From: Escherichia phage vB_vPM_PD112
Sequence record: NC_054928.1
Length of the DNA stretch: 64,000 nucleotides
Strand: one strand, 5' to 3'
Of this stretch, positions 2,254 through 53,139 are shown piece after piece; within the stretch, counting starts at the first letter, position 1, and each line of letters opens with the position of its first letter. Below the pieces are notes generated by a model. It saw only the letters and a list, made by a program, of their open reading frames with translations, made no database searches and was not told the DNA's origin. The translations under genes were made by a program, and so were the position numbers.

Positions 2254-3578
2254 TTGATTTCCTCTAAATCTTTGGTGTATTCGGTAACTACATCAGTAGT
2301 TTTCCAATATTCGTTTTCTTCTTTTTTAGCTTTAGCTTCTTCAGCAAGTTTCTTCGCTTCATCGGAAGTCATATGAAAAATATTCATTCCAACTAGTTTA
2401 TCAACATAAGAAGAATACATATCGATTTTCGAAAGTTCTTCGGTCAGTTCTTTACGAGTTTTACCTTGTACAACAATTTCACCTGAAATTACTTTCTTAA
2501 TGAAATGTGCCTTGGCAAAGGCTAAACGAAAAGCTGATTCAGTTTCTTTAATTTTGTTATCAATTCGTTTTTGAACATAAGTTTTACGAACTTCAACAAA
2601 GTCTTTAATTAAATCAACTACGTTATCGTAAACTTGCAGCTTTCCTTTCTCATTAATGACTGTAATATTCTGAGAACGACGCTCAATCAATCCAAAGTCT
2701 TTCATAATTTTTGCATGGCGTTCTTCTTCGTTATCGCTCAAAGAATATTCTTTACGGAATTTAACTTTAAAGCCAAAACCATGCTCACCGCAAGCATCAT
2801 CCCATGTAATGAAGCCTTTATCTTCAAGCGGGTCTAAGATTTTACTCACATAAGTTTCACGATCATACTTATACGGAATCTCAGTGATATTCATTTGAGT
2901 TCGTGAAGTAAACTTGTACGTTCCACGAATTTCATATTGACCGTCAATTTCAACGACTTCACCGCGAAATTCTGGGAATTCTACCTTCGGTTTAGTTACT
3001 TTCTTTCCTTGAAGAGCTTGTAGTACAGCTTTCTTGACAGAAGAAACACTATGAGGAAGAATGTAAGTTGCATAACCAGTTGCAATACCGGAAACACCGT
3101 TAAGAAGAACAGTAGGAATAATAGGCAAATAGAAAGCAGGCGGAATGTGTTCTTTATCTTGATGTACCGGAGCATATTCAGTATCTTTATATACGCTATA
3201 GAAATTTTTACTTACACGAGCAAAAATATAACGACTTGCTGCTGCTTTTTGAACGGTACGAGAACCAAAGTTTCCTTGACCATCTAACAAAGGAAAGTTA
3301 TTATTCCAAGTGTTAGCCATCAAAGCCCCCGCATCTTGTGCGGAGTTTTCACCATGATGATATCCAAGGTCAGCTACACCACCTGCAATAGAAGCGAGTT
3401 TGTGAAACTTATCTTTATTTCCTCGCGCCAAATCAAGAGCTCGAGCAATAACAAATCGTTGAACTGGCTTAAATCCATCAATCATATTTGGAATAGCACG
3501 ATTTTCAACCGTGTACATAGCATAAGCCAGTGCTTCATTATCAATGATACTTTTTAAATCGCGATTATTCAGTTGCAT
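2250..3578 (-). CDS. 52: DNA topoisomerase II medium subunit (GyrA-like)
   Basis: 442 aa, the T4 gp52 length; GyrA-like N-terminal region; ATG start. Confidence 0.95.
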   Translation of the reverse strand: MQLNNRDLKSIIDNEALAYAMYTVENRAIPNMIDGFKPVQRFVIARALDLARGNKDKFHKLASIAGGVADLGYHHGENSAQDAGALMANTWNNNFPLLDGQGNFGSRTVQKAAASRYIFARVSKNFYSVYKDTEYAPVHQDKEHIPPAFYLPIIPTVLLNGVSGIATGYATYILPHSVSSVKKAVLQALQGKKVTKPKVEFPEFRGEVVEIDGQYEIRGTYKFTSRTQMNITEIPYKYDRETYVSKILDPLEDKGFITWDDACGEHGFGFKVKFRKEYSLSDNEEERHAKIMKDFGLIERRSQNITVINEKGKLQVYDNVVDLIKDFVEVRKTYVQKRIDNKIKETESAFRLAFAKAHFIKKVISGEIVVQGKTRKELTEELSKIDMYSSYVDKLVGMNIFHMTSDEAKKLAEEAKAKKEENEYWKTTDVVTEYTKDLEEIK

Positions 3579-3582
3579 AAAT

Positions 3583-3723
3583 TTACCATACTAGTGAATG
3601 TAGTGCCATAATAACATCAGAAATGAAAAGCACGACTTGAATTAATCCGAACATTACTCCATAATATAGTGCTACCAGTAAAGCAGCAAGGGCTACTGAG
3701 TAGCCCAAGATTTTCTTAATCAT
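3583..3723 (-). CDS. small hydrophobic protein, 46 aa
   Basis: Hand-translated MIKKILGYSVALAALLVALYYGVMFGLIQVVLFISDVIMALHSLVW; ATG overlaps the ac stop; not in ORF track. Confidence 0.45.
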   Translation of the reverse strand: MIKKILGYSVALAALLVALYYGVMFGLIQVVLFISDVIMALHSLVW

Positions 3724-3871
3724 TAGATAACAACGCAAATGTTAAACATGCACACATACCCTGAGCTAAAGCTTGCGAAAACACGCTGCTGACATCAATA
3801 CAGATAGTTAAAACACATGCTACTATCCAACAAATAAATGAAATAACTCCTAATAATTTTGCAATATTCAT
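3716..3871 (-). CDS. ac: small membrane protein, probably Ac (acriflavine sensitivity)
   Basis: 51 aa hydrophobic ORF MNIAKLLGVISFICWIVACVL; size and position between 52 and stp fit T4 ac as I recall it. Confidence 0.5.
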   Translation of the reverse strand: MNIAKLLGVISFICWIVACVLTICIDVSSVFSQALAQGMCACLTFALLSND

Positions 3872-3878
3872 ATTTTCC

Positions 3879-3959
3879 TCACTGGCGTCCGAAGACGCCT
3901 TTAGTTTTAAGATTGTTACGATAGAACTGCATTACGTGTTCGTTATGGAAATTACTCAT
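3879..3959 (-). CDS. stp: Stp peptide (suppressor of three-prime phosphatase)
   Basis: 26-aa [29 protein letters not shown], recalled as T4 Stp; SD GAGGA; hairpin immediately downstream. Confidence 0.75.
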
Positions 3960-4414
3960 TAATATGCCTGCAAAACAAATTTAAAGTTATCAGCCAACAT
4001 ACGGTTCATTTCTTCAAGTGTTTGATACTCAGAATGATGATTACGAGTAAACGCCAAAGCTAACTGACCTTTTCCAAATCCTGTCGTCAAAGGTTTCATC
4101 TTAGAAGCAGGTAGATAAAATACCGTGTATGGAACATTGTTATTTGCAATAGTACGCGCAAGCTGAGACCGACGCTGACGAATATGACTTAGAACTGCAC
4201 TGAATCCTTGCTTAGAACGCTGATTACCTACATAAAATCGTGCAGATACACACGGACTATCAAATGGACCACCAAATTTGCTCACTAAAAAGTAAAATCC
4301 AGGGTTAGACAAAATGTCTTTATGCGGAGTTCCAAAAACCCATTCACCACCCTTGATTGTACCAATAACAGTAGCGCCTGCATTATTCAGATCAGTAACA
4401 GTCATGTATTTCAT
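3959..4414 (-). CDS. ndd: Ndd nucleoid disruption protein
   Basis: 151 aa, the T4 Ndd length; position downstream of denB and upstream of stp. Confidence 0.85.
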
Positions 4415-4473
4415 ATTAATTTCCTCTAATTATTTTCTACTCCAAGGCCGCATGAATACACACGGCCATTAAA

Positions 4474-4689
4474 TTAATCGTCGCAGTCGACGCTCAATTC
4501 CCAAAACTCTTCTACAGTATAAGTTTCAGTATCATTTTCAATACAGAAACGTTCATTACTGTTATTTGCTAAAGTAGCGTTAACTGTCGGTTTCTCGCTA
4601 GTGCTCTTAAGAGGTGAAATACGAATTAACTGATCACCACTATCTAAACAGAAAATTTCACCAACTTTTACATCTTTAAAAATTTTCAT
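4474..4689 (-). CDS. hypothetical protein, 71 aa
   Basis: Track ORF, ATG start. Confidence 0.5.
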   Translation of the reverse strand: MKIFKDVKVGEIFCLDSGDQLIRISPLKSTSEKPTVNATLANNSNERFCIENDTETYTVEEFWELSVDCDD

Positions 4690-4804
4690 AATTCACCTCA
4701 GGGAGTATAAAATCCGAATGCAGTTGTTGACCATCCCATCCAATATGGGAAATTTGCGCCAATGTAAAACATGAGAATATAAAACCAACCGCTCAGCAAA
4801 TTCA

Positions 4805-5002
4805 TCATTTTACGCCATTCCAAATTGTTTCAACCACGGATTTTAAACCATTTTGATGAATATCAATTCCGACTACTGTCATCAAATAGATTCCAACTAC
4901 AACTGAACCTAAGGCAAAAATCAGCATGAAAATGAATAAAGCCGGAAAAATATTATCGAAAAACCATTCAATAAATGTAAAAGCACTGCGTTTACGCTTC
5001 AT
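4805..5002 (-). CDS. small membrane protein, 65 aa
   Basis: Track ORF starts on TTG; first ATG with SD GAGGAAAAT gives MKRKRSAF..., one hydrophobic span. Confidence 0.5.
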   Translation of the reverse strand: MKRKRSAFTFIEWFFDNIFPALFIFMLIFALGSVVVGIYLMTVVGIDIHQNGLKSVVETIWNGVK

Positions 5003-5009
5003 ATTTTCC

Positions 5010-5123
5010 TCACATAAATCCAAAGTAAGCGTTTAATACATCAATCATTAAAACGATTGGGAATATACTCAAAACTATTAGTATTATAACTACATTCCAT
5101 ATAGCTTTAACAATCTTTTTCAT
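5010..5123 (-). CDS. small membrane peptide, 37 aa
   Basis: Hand-translated MKKIVKAIWNVVIILIVLSIFPIVLMIDVLNAYFGFM; SD GGAGGA; early promoter upstream; not in track. Confidence 0.35.
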   Translation of the reverse strand: MKKIVKAIWNVVIILIVLSIFPIVLMIDVLNAYFGFM

Positions 5124-5287
5124 TTTCTGTTCCTCCGTAGTTGATAGGGTAATAGTACCACGGAAGAACAGTCTTGTAAACAACTTTTTTTAAAAATATT
5201 CGTAATAAATGTGAATACCAACTACTACCGCTGAAACCTGTGCAACCCACCACGCACAAGCAATAAGTACAGAATTCAAAATTTTCA
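5117..5287 (-). CDS. small membrane protein, 56 aa, 3-prime end overlapping a promoter
   Basis: Hand-translated MKILNSVLIACAWWVAQVSAVVVGIHIYYEYFKK...; hydrophobic N-terminus; reading frame runs through promoter 5152-5180. Confidence 0.3.
5152..5180 (-). promoter_or_regulatory. T4-early-type promoter
   Basis: Minus strand TTTACA (plus 5175-5180), 17 nt, TACTAT (plus 5152-5157); followed by conserved leader and SD GGAGGA. Confidence 0.65.
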
Positions 5288-5370
5288 TAATAACCTCATC
5301 ACAAAAGTAAATGTTAAACAAATTACTGGAATACTAATTAACCAAACAAAACACCACCACCACAGTGAAC

Positions 5371-5634
5371 TCATAGTTCAATCTCAACGATTTCCAGGTG
5401 TTTTTGTTTTATTGCCTTTTTAACACAATCATGGACTAAATATGACCATGAATCATTATATTCTCCATTAACTAATCGTTGGAGATCTTCACGTGATGAT
5501 AAGTAAGGTTGATCTGATTCCCATTTTGATAAAAATACTGCAGTAAAAATATCTCCTTCACCTGTAGTTGAAGTCGTAAATGCAATAAATTCACCGGTAA
5601 TTTTATGTTTAGCGTAATAAAATTTAAATTTCAT
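5371..5634 (-). CDS. hypothetical protein, 87 aa
   Basis: Track ORF trimmed to the ATG that lies downstream of promoter 5662-5690 and has SD GGAGGA. Confidence 0.5.
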   Translation of the reverse strand: MKFKFYYAKHKITGEFIAFTTSTTGEGDIFTAVFLSKWESDQPYLSSREDLQRLVNGEYNDSWSYLVHDCVKKAIKQKHLEIVEIEL

Positions 5635-5661
5635 TTTTACTCCTCCGTAGCTGATAGTTGT

Positions 5662-5690
5662 ATAGTACCACAGTCCTTGTGGTATGTAAA
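5662..5690 (-). promoter_or_regulatory. T4-early-type promoter
   Basis: Minus strand TTTACA (plus 5685-5690), 17 nt, TACTAT (plus 5662-5667); spacer has dyad CCACA..TGTGG. Confidence 0.7.
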
Positions 5691-5708
5691 CTGTTTTGTG
5701 AAATTTTT

Positions 5709-6266
5709 TTAAATGGAAAGATACCATCCGTTGTAGTTGCTTTTTCTTACAACCTTACGAAGGTCTTCTCTGTCACCGATGAACTTCGGAGTGTACTGGA
5801 TGACACCTGGATGAATTTCTTTAGTGTTGAATATAATTATACAGTCAGCGACTTGGTGATTTAGAATGGGCCCTAGATTTATTCCAGAACCATATGGATA
5901 CTCTCCGCTGCATCCGGTTGTTACCGAAATCCAACGTGAGTCAGTTTGATGTGTCTTAACTTCTACACGAAGCCCACAGTATTTTGGATGCGCCAATACA
6001 TCCCATGCATATGTGTACGGATCATCGACATCTTCTTGACCTTTGTTAACATACCCGCTCAGCCAATCTGCTACAAAAAATTCTGCGTACACAGCGATAC
6101 GGCATCTTTCGATAACTTCTGCCTTATCTTGATTTGGGTTTTGTTTTAAAGAGTATCTTGCTGTATCAGCAATTTTGGCCTTCATTTCACTAGTCAAGTC
6201 ACTGTTCGATAGGGTAAATGTCGGAATCTGAAACAGTCTCTGTAACCCAGGATTCGTTTTCTGCAT
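5709..6266 (-). CDS. denB: DenB, endonuclease IV
   Basis: 185 aa, the T4 DenB length; position between ndd cluster and rIIB. Confidence 0.7.
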   Translation of the reverse strand: MQKTNPGLQRLFQIPTFTLSNSDLTSEMKAKIADTARYSLKQNPNQDKAEVIERCRIAVYAEFFVADWLSGYVNKGQEDVDDPYTYAWDVLAHPKYCGLRVEVKTHQTDSRWISVTTGCSGEYPYGSGINLGPILNHQVADCIIIFNTKEIHPGVIQYTPKFIGDREDLRKVVRKSNYNGWYLSI

Positions 6267-29616: not shown

Positions 29617-29961
29617 TTAAAAGAATTTAAATTTTTTCTTTGACCTTTTATTAAATGCATCTTGTAGTTGCATTGTAATACATTTTTCTACATGAGGAGC
29701 TAACTCAGCTTTTCTTTCTTGGTCAAGAACAGCAAAGTCCATTACGACTTTTCCATCAACCCAATCTAATTTTGTCACATACACAATGTGTGTAGAACCA
29801 TCTTCTAGTTTAATGACAATCTCCTGGATAACATTTTCCATGGCAGATTTAATTATCTTAAGAGATTCATTAAAAAGACGTTCTTTTCTTTCTTCTTCCC
29901 CCTCCGAAGAGGGGGATTCATCGATAATTTCTAGATCTAAATCTAAATCATCTTTATTCAT
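29617..29961 (-). CDS. 40: acidic protein, about 114 aa, probably gp40
   Basis: Position between uvsX and 41 as on the T4 map; track start is GTG, first ATG used. Confidence 0.45.
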   Translation of the reverse strand: MNKDDLDLDLEIIDESPSSEGEEERKERLFNESLKIIKSAMENVIQEIVIKLEDGSTHIVYVTKLDWVDGKVVMDFAVLDQERKAELAPHVEKCITMQLQDAFNKRSKKKFKFF

Positions 29962-31129
29962 TAAATTCTTCCATATCACTTAACTGTTCGAGGTCAGTTT
30001 CTAAATCAGCAGCTGATTTACTTTTACTTTCTGGAGATTTAAATTTTTCAACCTTTGAGTTAATCAATTCATCAACTTCAGCTTCAACAATTTCATTACT
30101 ATCAATAGCACCTAACTGATAAGCACGTTTAATAGCATCTCGGAATGGTTGATGCTTAAATAAAGGACCCCAGAATGTAGTGCAGTTGGTATCTTTTGCA
30201 CGCCAAGATTTTTCTTCGCGAATCATCTCACCGGTTTCTTCATCAAGAAATTCACGAGCATACCAGCCATTTTTAGGTTTTACCACGAATCCTAATTCTA
30301 GAGCCATATCTAACAATCCAGAATAAGGATCGATACCACCATCAAATTTAACATCAATAAAGAATTTACTTTTTTCTTTAACGGTACGAGATTTTTCTAC
30401 ATTTAGAACAAATTGATACCCCTGAAGATCAGAACCATCTTTAATCTGACGCTTACCGATAATGAATACAGTATCAGCCGAATACATCGGTCCAGTCCCG
30501 CCTCCCATAACGGTTTTACTAAACATTTCTTGTGTTTCGTATGTATGGTTAATAGCAATACATGGAATATTTTTAGTACTAAAATAGGGAGTTACGATAC
30601 GAAATAAGCTTTTCATTGTTTTAGCTCTAGTCATATCACTAACAACTTTTTCATTTAAAGCATCTTCAGTTTCTTTCTTAGAAGCTAAGTTACCAAGCGA
30701 ATCAATAAAAACGACTACCTTTTCACCACGTTCAATTGCATCCAATTGATTAACCATATCAATACGTAATTGCTCAAGTGATTGAACCGGAGTATGAATT
30801 ACTCGTTCTGGATCAACCCCCATGGATCGCAAATAAGCTGGAGTGATACCAAATTCGCTGTCATAAAACAAACATACTGCGTCAGGATATTGCCGCATGT
30901 AAGATGACACCATTGTTAATCCAAAGTTTGATTTAAATGATTTTGATGGACCTGCCAAAATTAACAGACCAGATTGCATACCACCAGTAATTTCACCAGA
31001 AAGCGCAATATTCATCATAGGAATTTTTGTTCGAACTACATCTTTTTCATTAAAGAATTTAGATGTAGTCAGTTCAGCGGTCAATTTAGAAGTAGAAGCT
31101 TTAATCAAACGAGATTTTAAATCAGACAT
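29954..31129 (-). CDS. uvsX: UvsX recombinase (RecA-like)
   Basis: 391 aa, the T4 UvsX length; Walker A GPSKSFKS. Confidence 0.95.
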   Translation of the reverse strand: MSDLKSRLIKASTSKLTAELTTSKFFNEKDVVRTKIPMMNIALSGEITGGMQSGLLILAGPSKSFKSNFGLTMVSSYMRQYPDAVCLFYDSEFGITPAYLRSMGVDPERVIHTPVQSLEQLRIDMVNQLDAIERGEKVVVFIDSLGNLASKKETEDALNEKVVSDMTRAKTMKSLFRIVTPYFSTKNIPCIAINHTYETQEMFSKTVMGGGTGPMYSADTVFIIGKRQIKDGSDLQGYQFVLNVEKSRTVKEKSKFFIDVKFDGGIDPYSGLLDMALELGFVVKPKNGWYAREFLDEETGEMIREEKSWRAKDTNCTTFWGPLFKHQPFRDAIKRAYQLGAIDSNEIVEAEVDELINSKVEKFKSPESKSKSAADLETDLEQLSDMEEFNE

Positions 31130-31137
31130 ATAATACC

Positions 31138-31803
31138 TTATAATAGTGTTCTTGTTCCACGAAATACTTCGAGCATTCTTGCATAAGATTTATTTGGAAA
31201 TCCAGCCTCAATTGCTAATTTTTTAAGCTTAATAGCACCGGGTTTTCCAGAGTTTTCCCATATTTCTTTAATCTTTTCAATGTTACCCCACATTATTGGG
31301 TCACGTTTATGTGATGGTTTATTTCTATTATAACCATATGGATTATTAAGCAAAGCTTCTTTTCGTCTTGCTTTAGTTTCTTCTGACTGCTTTTTGCCTA
31401 GCTGGACTTTCCGGCAAACATCACTAAATCCAAGATGTTTTGGTTTTCCTTTTTGAGCTTTCGAAATTTTTTCTTTAGTTTCTGATGAAACTCTATAACC
31501 AATTCTTCTACCACCCTCTCCGCCAATTTTTAAATTATAGGTCATAGGATCATTTACAACATCTATTGTTACTAATTCTCTTTCAGCATCCCGGGCTGAT
31601 TTAAAATCTTTATAAAACCCAAGAATGCTTAAATTAAAATTTTTCTTACCATACTTTTTCTTGGCTTGTGCTAATAAAGTTCCTGACCCCAGATAACCAT
31701 CATTTAAGTCATCGGTTGAATGAGTTCCGTAGTAAATTTTATTATTAACTAAATTAGTTATAACATAAGTATAATTATATTTCTTTTCTTTGTGTCTTTT
31801 CAT
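31138..31803 (-). CDS. segA: SegA, GIY-YIG homing endonuclease
   Basis: 221 aa from first ATG; GIY-YIG motif YVITN...KIYYGTHS and NUMOD-like repeats; position after uvsX as in T4. Confidence 0.9.
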   Translation of the reverse strand: MKRHKEKKYNYTYVITNLVNNKIYYGTHSTDDLNDGYLGSGTLLAQAKKKYGKKNFNLSILGFYKDFKSARDAERELVTIDVVNDPMTYNLKIGGEGGRRIGYRVSSETKEKISKAQKGKPKHLGFSDVCRKVQLGKKQSEETKARRKEALLNNPYGYNRNKPSHKRDPIMWGNIEKIKEIWENSGKPGAIKLKKLAIEAGFPNKSYARMLEVFRGTRTLL

Positions 31804-31807
31804 GTCA

Positions 31808-32650
31808 TTAATCAACTGCTATTGGATGAATAGCATTAAACTTATGAAACGCTTCTGATTTTTCTTTGCGCGAAACACACATGCGAAGAACCTTTAATGG
31901 CTCGTCTTCTTCACCCAACGATTTTCGTTTTTCAATATTAGAAGTTTTCCAACGAGCTTGCTCTGGAAATTCTCTATTGATTTGCTCGAGAGCTCTATTA
32001 TGTTTTGAATTACTACGAATTGAACTACATCCGCCAGGAGCTTGTGCTTTTCCGGATACAACCAGATATTTGAACAAGGCCAAATGCGGATAACCTTGAT
32101 TAATTAAATTGAGAAATGCATACATATCTTCGCATAAATCAATTTTTCCATACCCAATTTGTTCTGTTGTAAGTTTTCCAAGGTCATACCATGTATTCGT
32201 GAATCCATATGAATTTTCACGATAATTACCCCAAGATGAAGTAATTTTAAAAATAGGTAGACGAGCATGGCCATGATAATACCCGCAATCCATGGCATCT
32301 TCAACGTATTGAATCAATTCATAGAACTGTTCACGAGTTAATTGATTAATTTTATCTACGCAGCGACGATCATCTTTCTTTCGCATTGAACTCATACGAA
32401 TAGTAGTATCATCATCGATCATCCAAATTCGTTGACCTGCATACATATCAGTAATTGCTTTACGAGTTCCAGCAATTCCATTAACATCATCAGGAATAGT
32501 TACAATTTTAGCTCTAGACCCGTAAGCGTCATAATAAGCTTTTTCTTCATGTTCACGTACTACAATATGAGGTTCATAATCAGTCGGAAACATATCAAGG
32601 GCAGAAACTGCCCCTACACGTTGATAGCTTGGAATTACGAATTGAATCAT
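31808..32650 (-). CDS. GT-A fold (family 2-like) glycosyltransferase in the T4 beta-gt slot
   Basis: 280 aa; FVIPSYQR N-terminus and DxD-like WMIDDDTT; too short for T4 beta-gt (351 aa). Confidence 0.7.
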   Translation of the reverse strand: MIQFVIPSYQRVGAVSALDMFPTDYEPHIVVREHEEKAYYDAYGSRAKIVTIPDDVNGIAGTRKAITDMYAGQRIWMIDDDTTIRMSSMRKKDDRRCVDKINQLTREQFYELIQYVEDAMDCGYYHGHARLPIFKITSSWGNYRENSYGFTNTWYDLGKLTTEQIGYGKIDLCEDMYAFLNLINQGYPHLALFKYLVVSGKAQAPGGCSSIRSNSKHNRALEQINREFPEQARWKTSNIEKRKSLGEEDEPLKVLRMCVSRKEKSEAFHKFNAIHPIAVD

Positions 32651-49222: not shown

Positions 49223-49337
49223 ATTTTACCCTTAATTGATTAACCAAGCATTGATAAGCACTAAACTATACTGTGAATAAAATTCTGGACCAAAATGAAA
49301 AATCATATCATTTATAGTATCCATAATGTAATTCAAT

Positions 49338-49808
49338 TTAATCATGTTTCCACACCCCATCGGTATTTGACCAAAGTCGCTGATTATCTGATCCTCGCCA
49401 CAGCTTTTTGGTCGGAAGATTTTTCTCATACTTCCCATCAATAATAACATCAACATATTTAAGCATTTCTAGTTGTTTAATATCTTCAAACTTATATCCT
49501 GTCCACAACCAAATGCTTTTATTGGGATAAAGATTTTTTACTGTTTGAACAATGCAATGAACATCATCTCGGTTATCAGGATAAAGAGGGTCTCCTCCAG
49601 TTATAGTTAATCCTTCTATATAATCATTATTCAAACATTCAATTAATTGTTCTAGTGTTTCACCAGTGAATGGAACGCCATTTCTAGCATTCCATGTTGA
49701 TTTATTATAACACCCTTCACATTTATGCAAACACCCCGTAACGAAAAGAACGACCCTGCATCCAGGGCCATTTACAAAGCAGCACGGGTATATTCTGTCA
49801 TAATTCAT
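49338..49808 (-). CDS. nrdG: anaerobic ribonucleotide reductase activase (radical SAM)
   Basis: 156 aa from ATG (track adds a TTG extension); CxxxCxxC in GCLHKCEGCYN. Confidence 0.9.
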   Translation of the reverse strand: MNYDRIYPCCFVNGPGCRVVLFVTGCLHKCEGCYNKSTWNARNGVPFTGETLEQLIECLNNDYIEGLTITGGDPLYPDNRDDVHCIVQTVKNLYPNKSIWLWTGYKFEDIKQLEMLKYVDVIIDGKYEKNLPTKKLWRGSDNQRLWSNTDGVWKHD

Positions 49809-50047
49809 AATAATATCCAATTTTTCCAAGCTTCATCAGTAGAATTACAGCGTTTTAGTATAAGATGTCTAGAAACTTTTATGGCATTTGAGCACTTTTT
49901 AATTGAATCATATTTTAATAAAGCGGCACGAATCAATGTTCCTGACCCCATATAACCGTCATTTATGTTATCGGTGCTATGCGCACCGATATATTCCTTT
50001 GAATTAATTATATTTGTTATTTTATAAATTATATAATACCTATGCAT
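49805..50047 (-). pseudogene. truncated GIY-YIG homing endonuclease remnant, 80 aa
   Basis: YYIIYKITN...KEYIGAHSTDNINDGYMGSGTLI parallels the SegA N-terminus, then ends with no DNA-binding domain. Confidence 0.6.
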
Positions 50048-51857
50048 GTTTTACTCGTTTTACCATTTCTTTCATTTTACCTAAATTCCATGGAACAACG
50101 CTAGGAGTTCCAAGATATCCGCATGTTCTTCTTATGGTGTTCATCTTTTTAGGATCAGTTTCTCCACAAATAGAACAAACAAATCCGTTCTCGGTTGGAG
50201 TCATTTCATGGGTACTTCCACACGTAAAACATTTATCTACTGGCATATTAACGCCAAAATAATCTAAATGTTGTGCAGCATAATCCCATACAGCCTCAAG
50301 GCCTTTTAGGTTATTTTTCATATCAGGAAGTTCAACATAAGAAATGTGACCGCCTGTCGCGATGAAATGATATGGGGCTTCGCGAGAAATCTTTTCAAAT
50401 GGAGTAATATTTTCTTCTACTGAAACGTGGAAACTGTTAGTGTACCAGCCTTTATCAGTAACATCTTTTACACTTCCATATTTTTCGGTATCAAGTTTAC
50501 AGAAGCGATAGCACAGGTTTTCAGCAGGAGTAGAATACAAGCTAAAAGCAAATCCGGTTCTTTCAGTCCACTGCTTAAGATGAGTATTCATTTTAGTTAA
50601 AATTTCTTGTCCAATATCACGACCGACAAGAATATTCAATTCGTGAATACCAATGTATCCTAGGGACACTGAACTTCTACCATTTTTAAATAACTCAATT
50701 ATATCGTCATCAGGTTTAAGACGAACCCCGAATGCACCTTCCTGGTAAAGAATAGGAGCAACAGTAGCTTTAACTCCTTTTAAGGAACTAATTCTACACA
50801 TCAATGCTTCAAAACATAAATCCATTCGTTCATTGAACAATTCGGCAAATTTCTGTTCATTGAACTGTGTTCCAATATAAGAATCTAATGCAATACGAGG
50901 AAGATTCAGTGTTACAACACCAAGATTATTACGTCCATCAAGAATTTCATTACCAGTCGAATCTTTCCATACGCCCAAGAAACTACGGCAACCCATTGGA
51001 GAAACAGGAATAGATGAACCGGTGATAGCTTTATTGTTCTTAGCCGAAATGATGTCAGGATACATTCTTTTGCTTGCGCACTCTAAAGCAAGCTGCTTAA
51101 TATCATAGTTCGGATCGTCTTTATAAAGATTAACACCTTCTTCAACGAACATAACAAGTTTAGGGAAAATAGGAGTTATCCCATCACGACCGAGACCTTT
51201 AATACGATTTTTCAGAATTGCTTTCTGAATCATTCGTTCAGTCCAGTCAGTTCCCGTACCAAATGTAATTGTTACAAAAGGAGTTTGTCCGTTTGAACTA
51301 AAGAGAGTATTTACTTCATATTCATAAGCTTGGAACGCATCGTATACGTCTTTTTCTGTTTTAGATTGGGCATAATTCAACGCATCAGTGATTTGCCATT
51401 TTTCCGCGTCCTCAATATGTTTCGCATAGGTGCGTTTAACATAAGGAGAAAGTACTTTATCTACATTCGCAAAAGTCGTTCCGCCATATTGATGAGAAGC
51501 AACCTGTGCAGTAATTTGTGCCATAATTGCAGTAGCAACGCCAATTGATTTAGGAGTTTCAATCTGTGCATTACCGAGCTTAAATCCGTTCTCAAGCATT
51601 CCTTTTAAATCTACTAAACAGCAATTAGTAAAAGGCAATGATATACTGTAATCTAAATCATGAAAATGAATTAACCCGGCATTATGAGCATTTACAATAT
51701 GGCTTGGAAGAATACTGCAAGCGATATGTTTAGAAACAATACCGGCCATTAAATCTCTTTTTGTTGGAAAGACACGAGAATCTTTGTTGGCGTTTTCGGT
51801 ATTTAATTCTTTATCTTTATTTGAAATAAAATTTAAAACATCTTTCTCTAAAGACAT
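50040..51857 (-). CDS. nrdD: anaerobic ribonucleotide reductase, glycyl-radical enzyme
   Basis: 605 aa uninterrupted ORF; C-terminal glycyl-radical motif RRTCGYLG and zinc ribbon. Confidence 0.95.
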   Translation of the reverse strand: MSLEKDVLNFISNKDKELNTENANKDSRVFPTKRDLMAGIVSKHIACSILPSHIVNAHNAGLIHFHDLDYSISLPFTNCCLVDLKGMLENGFKLGNAQIETPKSIGVATAIMAQITAQVASHQYGGTTFANVDKVLSPYVKRTYAKHIEDAEKWQITDALNYAQSKTEKDVYDAFQAYEYEVNTLFSSNGQTPFVTITFGTGTDWTERMIQKAILKNRIKGLGRDGITPIFPKLVMFVEEGVNLYKDDPNYDIKQLALECASKRMYPDIISAKNNKAITGSSIPVSPMGCRSFLGVWKDSTGNEILDGRNNLGVVTLNLPRIALDSYIGTQFNEQKFAELFNERMDLCFEALMCRISSLKGVKATVAPILYQEGAFGVRLKPDDDIIELFKNGRSSVSLGYIGIHELNILVGRDIGQEILTKMNTHLKQWTERTGFAFSLYSTPAENLCYRFCKLDTEKYGSVKDVTDKGWYTNSFHVSVEENITPFEKISREAPYHFIATGGHISYVELPDMKNNLKGLEAVWDYAAQHLDYFGVNMPVDKCFTCGSTHEMTPTENGFVCSICGETDPKKMNTIRRTCGYLGTPSVVPWNLGKMKEMVKRVKHA

Positions 51858-52669
51858 AATTCTAATTTATCCTTTTGAAATTCTTCGTCTAAATATGGGT
51901 TCCAACCCATTTTAAACCTTTTGATGAAATTATCAATTCTAAATTTCGGTAAGTTTAAATCCGCAAAAATAGATGATTTACTTTTAAAATCTGGACCTAA
52001 ATAATCATATAAAATTTCTGCGTATTTTAACCATAATATATAAGTACCAGATTTAATTGCTCTCGGAGTTTTCCAAGGTTTTACACCATACATCGGATTT
52101 CCACTTCCTTTATGCCTGATAGAAGATGAAATTCCAATTTTAATTTTAGCTTCCTCTGTATGCGAAAATCCATGATGTGGATTTTCTTTCCAGTATTTTT
52201 TAGAAGCTTCTGATATTTTCTTTCTGGCTAAATTAGTATGATGCTTTCCATAAAATCCATGATTTTTACCTTTATTACGATTTCTTTTAATCATGGTTAT
52301 TGATTGCTTTTTTCTAGTTTCTTTAGAAGGAGAAACACCGTATGTTGTAAATTGACCATTAGCATATGCTAAATTAAAATACTCTTTATTCCATATATCT
52401 TTTTCTATATTCTTTTGAAATTCAGCTTCAATGCTAGTTATTTGCTCATCTCCGACTAATTGAAAATATAATATTTCAACTTTCGGCGTTTCTTTCAACA
52501 GGGCTTTTTGAAATTCGGAAGATGACGAAGACGAATAATAAAATTTACCATTTTTATCAATAATATTCGTTCCGTCAAAAGTGCAATTGGTTTTACTTCC
52601 AATATAATAATACGGCGGGGTTTTAGCATTAATTCTACTAATAAATGATAGTTTATATACTACATTCAT
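51848..52669 (-). CDS. Seg-like GIY-YIG homing endonuclease
   Basis: 273 aa; divergent GIY-YIG (VYKLSFI...PYYYIGSK) and two NUMOD-like repeats (GKNHGFYGKHHT, GSGNPMYG); free-standing between nrdD and 49. Confidence 0.65.
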   Translation of the reverse strand: MNVVYKLSFISRINAKTPPYYYIGSKTNCTFDGTNIIDKNGKFYYSSSSSSEFQKALLKETPKVEILYFQLVGDEQITSIEAEFQKNIEKDIWNKEYFNLAYANGQFTTYGVSPSKETRKKQSITMIKRNRNKGKNHGFYGKHHTNLARKKISEASKKYWKENPHHGFSHTEEAKIKIGISSSIRHKGSGNPMYGVKPWKTPRAIKSGTYILWLKYAEILYDYLGPDFKSKSSIFADLNLPKFRIDNFIKRFKMGWNPYLDEEFQKDKLELCL

Positions 52670-53139
52670 TTTAAACTCTTTCTAAGCTGCTTCTTAAATG
52701 AAGCTATTAATTGTGTTTTGGTGTCAGATTCATTATATTCAAATCCTCTTTGAAGCATCTCAGCCATCATTTCCTCTTTTCCTAAACGAGAAAATTCCTT
52801 TGATTTATCTCCAACGAAGTTAGGGTGAATATTATTTTGGGTGTAATCGGATTTTAAATAAGTAAGTAAATTTTCTAACCATTCAAGATAATCAACGCCT
52901 TGTCCCTTTAAGCCAGAACGATTAAATTTGTGTTTCATTTGACCTTCTGCAGCATTACACAGATTACAAAGCAATCCACGTACCTTTCCAGCTTTCGGTC
53001 CATTTAATTCATGGTCATGGTCAAGGTGATTAGCTTGAACATCAGGATTTAGTTCTCGTTGGCAAATTAAGCATTTACCGTTTTGTGCATTATAAAATTT
53101 TTGTTTTTCTTCTTTGTATAATTTGCCAGTCAATAACAT
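52666..53139 (-). CDS. 49: endonuclease VII (Holliday junction resolvase)
   Basis: 157 aa, the T4 gp49 length; zinc-binding CLIC...C...C and His motif. Confidence 0.9.
   Translation of the reverse strand: MLLTGKLYKEEKQKFYNAQNGKCLICQRELNPDVQANHLDHDHELNGPKAGKVRGLLCNLCNAAEGQMKHKFNRSGLKGQGVDYLEWLENLLTYLKSDYTQNNIHPNFVGDKSKEFSRLGKEEMMAEMLQRGFEYNESDTKTQLIASFKKQLRKSLK

Follow-up and report, generated by a model that had tools for sequence, protein, structure and literature searches.

A segH allele with an internal in-frame deletion, probably a non-functional homing endonuclease remnant, between nrdD and nrdG of a T-even phage

The site between nrdD and nrdG differs among T-even phages. In T2 it is empty, with the end of nrdD and the beginning of nrdG sharing an ATGA; in T4 it holds the HNH gene mobC; and in T6 and about 70 other phages it holds segH. 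SegH is said to have been described by Sandegren, Nord and Sjöberg in 2005 (NAR 33:6203). It is a free-standing GIY-YIG homing endonuclease of T6, RB3 and LZ2 (GenBank AY262137-9; via PMC2988022), and in these three phages segH is annotated between nrdD and nrdG. The T6 gene (MH550421) is 831 bp long and encodes 276 amino acids. In the T6 annotation it lies at 3506..4336, with nrdG at 3039..3509 and nrdD at 4329..6146; it shares 8 nt with the end of nrdD and an ATGA with the start of nrdG. Homing endonuclease genes pass through a cycle of degeneration and deletion (PMC2988022). A defective T-even endonuclease is already on record in I-TevIII, of which RB3 has the active form; its annotation in the T4 record reads "defective DNA endonuclease ... 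deletion in proximal half".

We investigated the nrdD/nrdG junction in a 64,000-nucleotide stretch of Escherichia phage vB_vPM_PD112 (NC_054928.1), referred to here as the window. The window is of T-even (Tequatrovirus) type, and its minus-strand genes around this site are gene 49 (endonuclease VII), a seg-like gene, nrdD, a short ORF and nrdG. The short ORF (delta-segH, here called the stub) occupies 49805..50047 (-), with an ATG start, 80 codons and a TGA stop, as established by the ORF list and by alignment with T6 segH. The original prediction of an 80-aa ORF with a GIY-YIG N-terminus, located between nrdG and nrdD, was confirmed. Residues 1-46 contain the GIY and YIG motifs and match PHROG 314 "homing endonuclease" (E 1.2e-15); Pfam SegE_GIY-YIG scores 11.6 bits on the stub, under its cut-off of 25, and Pfam alone makes no call. 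A likeness to SegA had also been pointed out, and it holds, the stub being 57% identical over 44 aa to the SegA encoded in the window (31138..31815), but SegA is a paralog and the parent is segH.

The stub is adjoined upstream by nrdD (50040..51857 (-)), a contiguous, intron-less gene of 605 aa whose stop overlaps the stub start by 8 nt (ATGCATAG, 50040..50047 (-)). Downstream lies nrdG (49338..49808 (-)), encoding a radical-SAM activase of 156 aa (Pfam Fer4_12, E 2.4e-48), whose translation start is inside the segH 3' end. The overlap with the nrdG start noted in the original prediction is real and consists of the 4-nt ATGA at 49805..49808 (-); like the overlap with nrdD, it is identical to that of intact segH. 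Its extent was exaggerated in the ORF list because nrdG was extended there to an upstream TTG at 49829 (163 aa; added segment 49809..49829 (-)). This TTG was rejected as the start, since the annotated homologues use the ATG at 49808, from which nrdG measures 471 bp, equal to that of T6, T2 and T4.

A megablast search of 50,697 phage records was carried out with 49300..50600 as the query, which returned 833 matching records. In 78 records covering this query the match was split in two, spanning 1,889 bp versus the 1,301 bp of the query, and the extra DNA was annotated "segH" or "homing endonuclease". With a 341-bp query, the matches in 71 phage records consisted of two pieces spanning 929 (or 927) bp, equal to 341 + 588, as seen in all 60 of the matches listed. 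Base-by-base comparison of the window with T6 revealed a single gap of exactly 588 bp, with flanks that are 99-100% identical. The gap removes 196 codons in frame and keeps the native start and stop. The segH 5' segment (codons 1-46, 49910..50047 (-)) carries the GIY and YIG motifs and the GSG...LLKY helix start, and the 3' segment (codons 243-276 and the native stop, 49805..49908 (-)) was located by tblastn with SegH residues 240-276. T6 segH contains the heptamer AAATATG twice, at nt 133 and at nt 721, 588 nt apart, and alignment and a repeat scan placed a single copy at the junction in the window (49909..49915 (-)). These comparisons show a microhomology-flanked in-frame deletion, from AAATATG to AAATATG, that fuses codons 1-46 to codons 243-276.

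The 243 nt that are retained are about 99-100% identical in DNA to segH (98.9-99.7% over the kept parts). Compared with segH of T6, RB3 and other phages, these segments show 97-100% identity, and at the protein level they match SegH at 97-98%; the sole amino-acid change relative to T6 SegH in the kept parts is A42 in the stub instead of S42. When the window was searched by tblastn with the full T6 SegH, residues 1-46 (97.8% identity) and 240-276 were recovered, contiguous and in one frame, together with the SegA paralog, and residues 47-239 were absent from the whole window in any frame. The stub is thus not the full-length 276-aa SegH, 196 codons being absent. Frameshift or read-through to a full-length protein was also considered and rejected: no full-length homologue is reachable by frameshift because the 588 bp are physically absent. 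The ORF had been called truncated, and here the prediction needs correction. A premature stop or 3' truncation is rejected by the T6 alignment, which places an internal 588-bp in-frame deletion in the gene, with the native stop in use. The element is almost certainly derived from segH. As judged from the alignments, it is a member of the segH gene lineage by descent, a pseudogene allele predicted to make no SegH enzyme.

We examined how common the deleted allele is. A tblastn search with T6 SegH found 71 records at 89% identity or above, and every sampled one contained a single intact 276-aa piece. With an 84-bp junction query, no junction-spanning record was detected among the 71 segH+ phage records (coverage at most 58%), and the exact 80-aa sequence was found once among ~15 billion proteins, in a cluster of one member. 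A deletion that ends in a short direct repeat and is seen in no annotated phage genome might be the product of an assembly or sequencing artefact, in which 588 bp were lost by mis-assembly between the repeats. However, a repeat of 7 bp is far too short for assembly collapse, and exactly the same junction was found in an independent 634-bp ENA metagenome contig, L002 (ERZ9424069 NODE_246577), which is where the single exact 80-aa match lies. The 243-bp stub and the junction of L002 are identical to those of the window, and in its nrdD and nrdG flanks the differences from the window fall on sites of T6 and T2 polymorphisms; near the contig end it also has some G-to-T changes that appear error-like. 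Since L002, with its different flanks, carries the same junction, the deletion is not an assembly artefact, an explanation that we find hardly credible and regard as effectively excluded. The deleted allele is present in at least two genomic backgrounds, yet it is rare.

The junction 29-mer (CTTTATTAAAATATGATTCAATTAAAAAG) had no match in IMG/VR or the JGI metagenomes, but these negative results carry little weight because a control 25-mer from intact segH was also unmatched in IMG/VR. In two Logan assemblies from different runs, L003 (SRR23364229) and L004, the same A-run, immediately past segH codon 48, carries a -1 frameshift. In both, the frameshifted segH start (L003:4001-4219 and L004:1681-1899) gives a 72-aa product, and L004 contains a further -1 frameshift in a later A-run. 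These frameshifts may be genuine decay alleles or homopolymer sequencing errors.

The flanks of the insertion site were then compared across the phages. The last ~22 codons of nrdD are TPSVVPWNLGKMKEMVKRVKHA in segH-bearing sequences versus NPNERGFNLGKNKEIMHRVKHQ in T2 and T4. This variant 3' end, which covers 50040..50110 (-) in the window by comparison with T2, T4, T6 and L002-L004, was common to all segH-bearing sequences examined, namely the window, L002, T6, L003 and L004. Besides the window, it is listed for contigs L001, L002, L003 and L004, and most segH-bearing sequences also deviate within the first ~35 nt of nrdG. The recoded nrdD end appears to be a flank that is inherited together with segH, either co-converted or resistant to cleavage. 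Because the nrdD 3' end in the window is the variant linked to the segH cassette, the window descends from a segH+ ancestor. At the level of alignment, the comparisons show an ancestor that carried a complete segH cassette between nrdD and nrdG, with the recoded nrdD 3' end. The proposal that the ORF is what remains of a homing endonuclease, at a site occupied by mobile genes in relatives, was borne out, the site holding segH in 71 records, mobC in T4 and nothing in T2.

Several further features of this region were observed. The nrdD gene is intron-less here. The I-TevII group I intron is present in nrdD of T4 and of vB_EcoM_CE1, the closest relative (98.8% identity over 94% of a 22-kb query). 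Between nrdD and gene 49 (endonuclease VII, 52666..53139) lies an apparently intact Seg-like homing endonuclease gene (51848..52669 (-)), which overlaps both neighbours and encodes 273 aa (NUMOD3, E 1.1e-8; phrog_7504, E 9e-34). It is present at full length in 47 of 555 matching phage records and is not found in T6, T2, T4 or CE1. With this gene adjoining on one side and the stub on the other, nrdD has endonuclease genes at both sides here. In L003 (4001-5300), an ORF downstream of the frameshifted segH (72 aa + 212 aa) opens with the first 13 codons of T2-type nrdG and continues as a MobC-like HNH sequence to the contig end (38% over 60 aa to T4 MobC, E 9e-8; no Pfam match). Either two endonuclease genes may have accumulated at this site, or nrdG may have received an insertion.

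The domains kept and lost were mapped by aligning SegH directly with I-TevI, the sequence of which was taken from the T4 record. In I-TevI, the metal-binding Glu75 and the conserved Asn90 are needed for catalysis. SegH 7-101 aligned with I-TevI 5-106, the GIY-YIG domain (E 1e-3), and SegH 224-276 aligned with I-TevI 194-243, the C-terminal helix-turn-helix (HTH; BLASTP E 3e-4). A NUMOD3 at SegH 200-228 (Pfam) lies wholly inside the deletion, and the stub has no NUMOD3 repeats. Pfam PF20987 I-TevI_DNA-bd matched SegH 226-273 with E 2.5e-4 and scored 21.3 bits against a cut-off of 27, even for intact SegH. A search of the PDB with the SegH sequence gave no meaningful match, and a single-sequence AlphaFold model of the stub, all-helical with a mean pLDDT of 64, was uninformative.

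We found that YIIY (residues 5-8) and YIG (19-21) of the stub align with I-TevI Y6 and Y17, the N-terminal segment as a whole aligning with I-TevI residues 5-52. The part aligned with I-TevI 53-106, which includes SegH E68/E70 and N84 (I-TevI Glu75 and Asn90), falls inside the deletion, and a complete GIY-YIG domain (~90-100 aa, with the conserved Glu and Asn) is not present in the stub. At the other end, the stub holds 34 of the ~50 residues of the HTH module; both helices, aligned with I-TevI 211-243, are kept, and the preceding strand is lost. The statement that the ORF stops before any DNA-binding domain therefore did not hold, as the last 34 segH codons, aligned with the I-TevI C-terminal HTH, are retained. 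Because the second GIY-YIG half and the NUMOD3 linker are lost, the stub should be unable to cleave DNA or to promote homing, and we strongly infer that its nuclease activity is lost.

The 80-aa stub was searched against 1.84 billion representatives by exhaustive phmmer, which was used in place of a word-indexed protein search that gave 5 candidates, and 7,662 matches were obtained. The best match was the 276-aa SegH, aligned in two stretches. Among the best 150 of the 7,662 matches, the proteins were mostly 150-400 aa long and the best stretch was nearly always query residues 1-47 only, and proteins of less than ~100 aa among the matches listed corresponded to the N-terminal part of the query only. 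No ~80-aa family joining a GIY N-terminus to an HTH was found among the 1.84 billion representatives, and the cluster of the stub has one member, so that the short protein does not appear as a conserved functional unit. The same matches bear on the direction of the change. From the bare length difference alone, the short form could be ancestral and the 276-aa SegH could have arisen by a 588-bp insertion. However, the N-terminus is common to 7,662 relatives, the best 150 of which are mostly 150-400 aa, and it takes the extra 196 residues to make up the full GIY-YIG domain and NUMOD3 linker. These residues are also collinear with I-TevI and, over residues 17-276, with Seg-like proteins from phages of Klebsiella, Cronobacter and Enterobacter (46% identity). 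We give next to no credence to the short form as the ancestor, which is effectively excluded.

A different possibility is that the stub is an expressed and selected small DNA-binding protein, in which a GIY beta-hairpin and an I-TevI-like HTH are combined. Such a mini-protein might bind the SegH target or operator at the nrdD/nrdG junction and so shield it from an incoming segH+ phage (anti-homing), or, by analogy with I-TevI, whose autorepression acts through its DNA-binding domain, it might repress local transcription. The fusion is in frame and retains the residues aligned with I-TevI 211-243, including both HTH helices, the start and stop contexts are intact, and the identical allele occurs in a second genomic background. 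However, the two known occurrences are 100% identical and for that reason provide no signal of purifying selection, and no family of this architecture was found among the 1.84 billion representatives. The DNA-binding region has also lost its NUMOD3 and minor-groove parts and the strand before the HTH, and the AlphaFold model is of low confidence. In addition, segH contains 88 pairs of direct 7-mer repeats, 41 of which (~47%) are spaced by a multiple of three; ~47% of candidate deletions at such microhomologies would thus keep the frame by chance, and the in-frame state is weak evidence for selection. What supports the mini-protein comes down to the open frame; we consider both the protein and the roles suggested for it very improbable. 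If true, it would be a homing endonuclease domesticated by deletion.

Overlapping free-standing endonuclease ORFs are translated by coupling or ribosome scanning (PMC2988022). The deletion left the start context and both overlaps (8 nt with nrdD, ATGA with nrdG) unaltered, and low-level translation of the stub therefore probably persists. Its role would at most be that of a translated spacer by which ribosomes are handed on from nrdD to nrdG. The stub may, in addition, be kept at the level of the nucleic acid, with the segH 3' end acting as the ribosome-binding region of nrdG and the open frame coupling nrdG to nrdD, in which case only deletions that spare both ends and the frame would survive. 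Consistent with this possibility, nrdD and nrdG are coupled by ATGA at the empty site of T2 and through segH in segH+ genomes, both other frames past the junction run into stop codons ~70-95 nt before the nrdG ATG, and embedded signals favour the retention of free-standing endonuclease genes (PMC2988022). On the other hand, frameshifted segH alleles with early stops occur in nature (L003 and L004), and simple pattern searches of segH found no T4 late (TATAAATA) or MotA-box middle promoter consensus. Moreover, selection on nrdG may be weak because nrdG is required only under anaerobic conditions. Retention of this kind is possible but somewhat doubtful, and it is plausible as an addition that is compatible with the main reading of the stub as a remnant.

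Local signals were also examined. A promoter scan of the region detected 2 sigma-70-like sites versus a shuffle mean of 5.9. A sigma-70-like site at 49907..49936 (-) reads TTGATT-18 nt-TATGAT, with a -10 hexamer that was created by the junction (TATGGT in the intact gene); because the count for the region is below the shuffle mean, this site is probably due to chance. A whole-region RNA fold gave a z-score of -0.15 and thus no special RNA structure. At 49969..49991, within segH codons 19-27, there is a perfect 9-bp inverted repeat with a 5-nt loop (TATCGGTGC GCATA GCACCGATA, gene strand), which is conserved in all segH copies and is present in both the MFE and the centroid RNA folds.

Taken together, the comparisons suggest that the stub is a catalytically dead allele of the free-standing GIY-YIG homing endonuclease gene segH, with a probability of about 0.87; for the reading as a non-functional remnant we estimate 0.85-0.9. 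The in-frame state of the deletion, the retention of both HTH helices and the occurrence in two genomic backgrounds are the points that count against the remnant reading. We propose that a complete segH cassette sat between nrdD and nrdG in the ancestor and that slipped mispairing or illegitimate recombination between the AAATATG repeats then removed 588 bp; slippage or illegitimate recombination at short direct repeats is a classical route of deletion in T4. The product would have been left without the second GIY-YIG half and the NUMOD3 linker, and cleavage and homing would have been lost. The stub would then be translated weakly, by coupling or by scanning from nrdD, and ribosomes would be delivered to the nrdG start. 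Under this scheme, the allele would be a snapshot of the degeneration phase in the life cycle of a homing endonuclease gene.

The feature is an ordinary one, a new, rare and degenerate allele of a known homing endonuclease gene, and its scientific weight is modest. The allele is a clear case from nature of a free-standing T-even homing endonuclease gene caught while degenerating, and at the nrdD/nrdG locus one can recover the ancestral state, the empty site and the exact deletion with its probable mechanism. In annotations, the ORF would be better labelled a pseudogene or remnant of segH than a "hypothetical protein" or "GIY-YIG endonuclease". As a natural segH-null in which the segH-linked flanks persist, the phage could be used in crosses on re-invasion by intact segH and on the dependence of nrdG expression on translation across the inserted gene.

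Among known systems, SegH is matched by the stub in its locus, its orientation, the overlaps at its start and stop and the same variant nrdD 3' end. The stub differs from SegH in that codons 47-242 are gone, and with them the second GIY-YIG half, the NUMOD3 linker and the start of the DNA-binding end, leaving 80 instead of 276 aa. The stub resembles I-TevIII of T4 nrdB in its location at a T-even ribonucleotide reductase locus, its inactivation by deletion and the presence of intact copies in relatives (PMC2790892), but I-TevIII is an intron-encoded HNH enzyme without its N-terminal half, whereas the stub is a free-standing GIY-YIG gene product without its middle. I-TevI, the GIY-YIG enzyme of the T4 td intron, serves as the structural model for the catalytic domain, the linker and the HTH. 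SegH is collinear with it at both ends at ~30% identity, with NUMOD3 repeats in SegH where I-TevI has a zinc finger, and the stub keeps the equivalents of I-TevI 1-52 and ~211-243 without those of E75 and N90. SegA (31138..31815 (-)), a full-length 225-aa ORF next to uvsX (29954..31129), is 45% identical to SegH over 115 aa, but it belongs to another locus and is not the parent of the stub. MobC of T4 occupies the same position between nrdG and nrdD and overlaps both neighbours as the stub does; it is, however, an HNH protein of an unrelated fold family with no sequence similarity to the stub.
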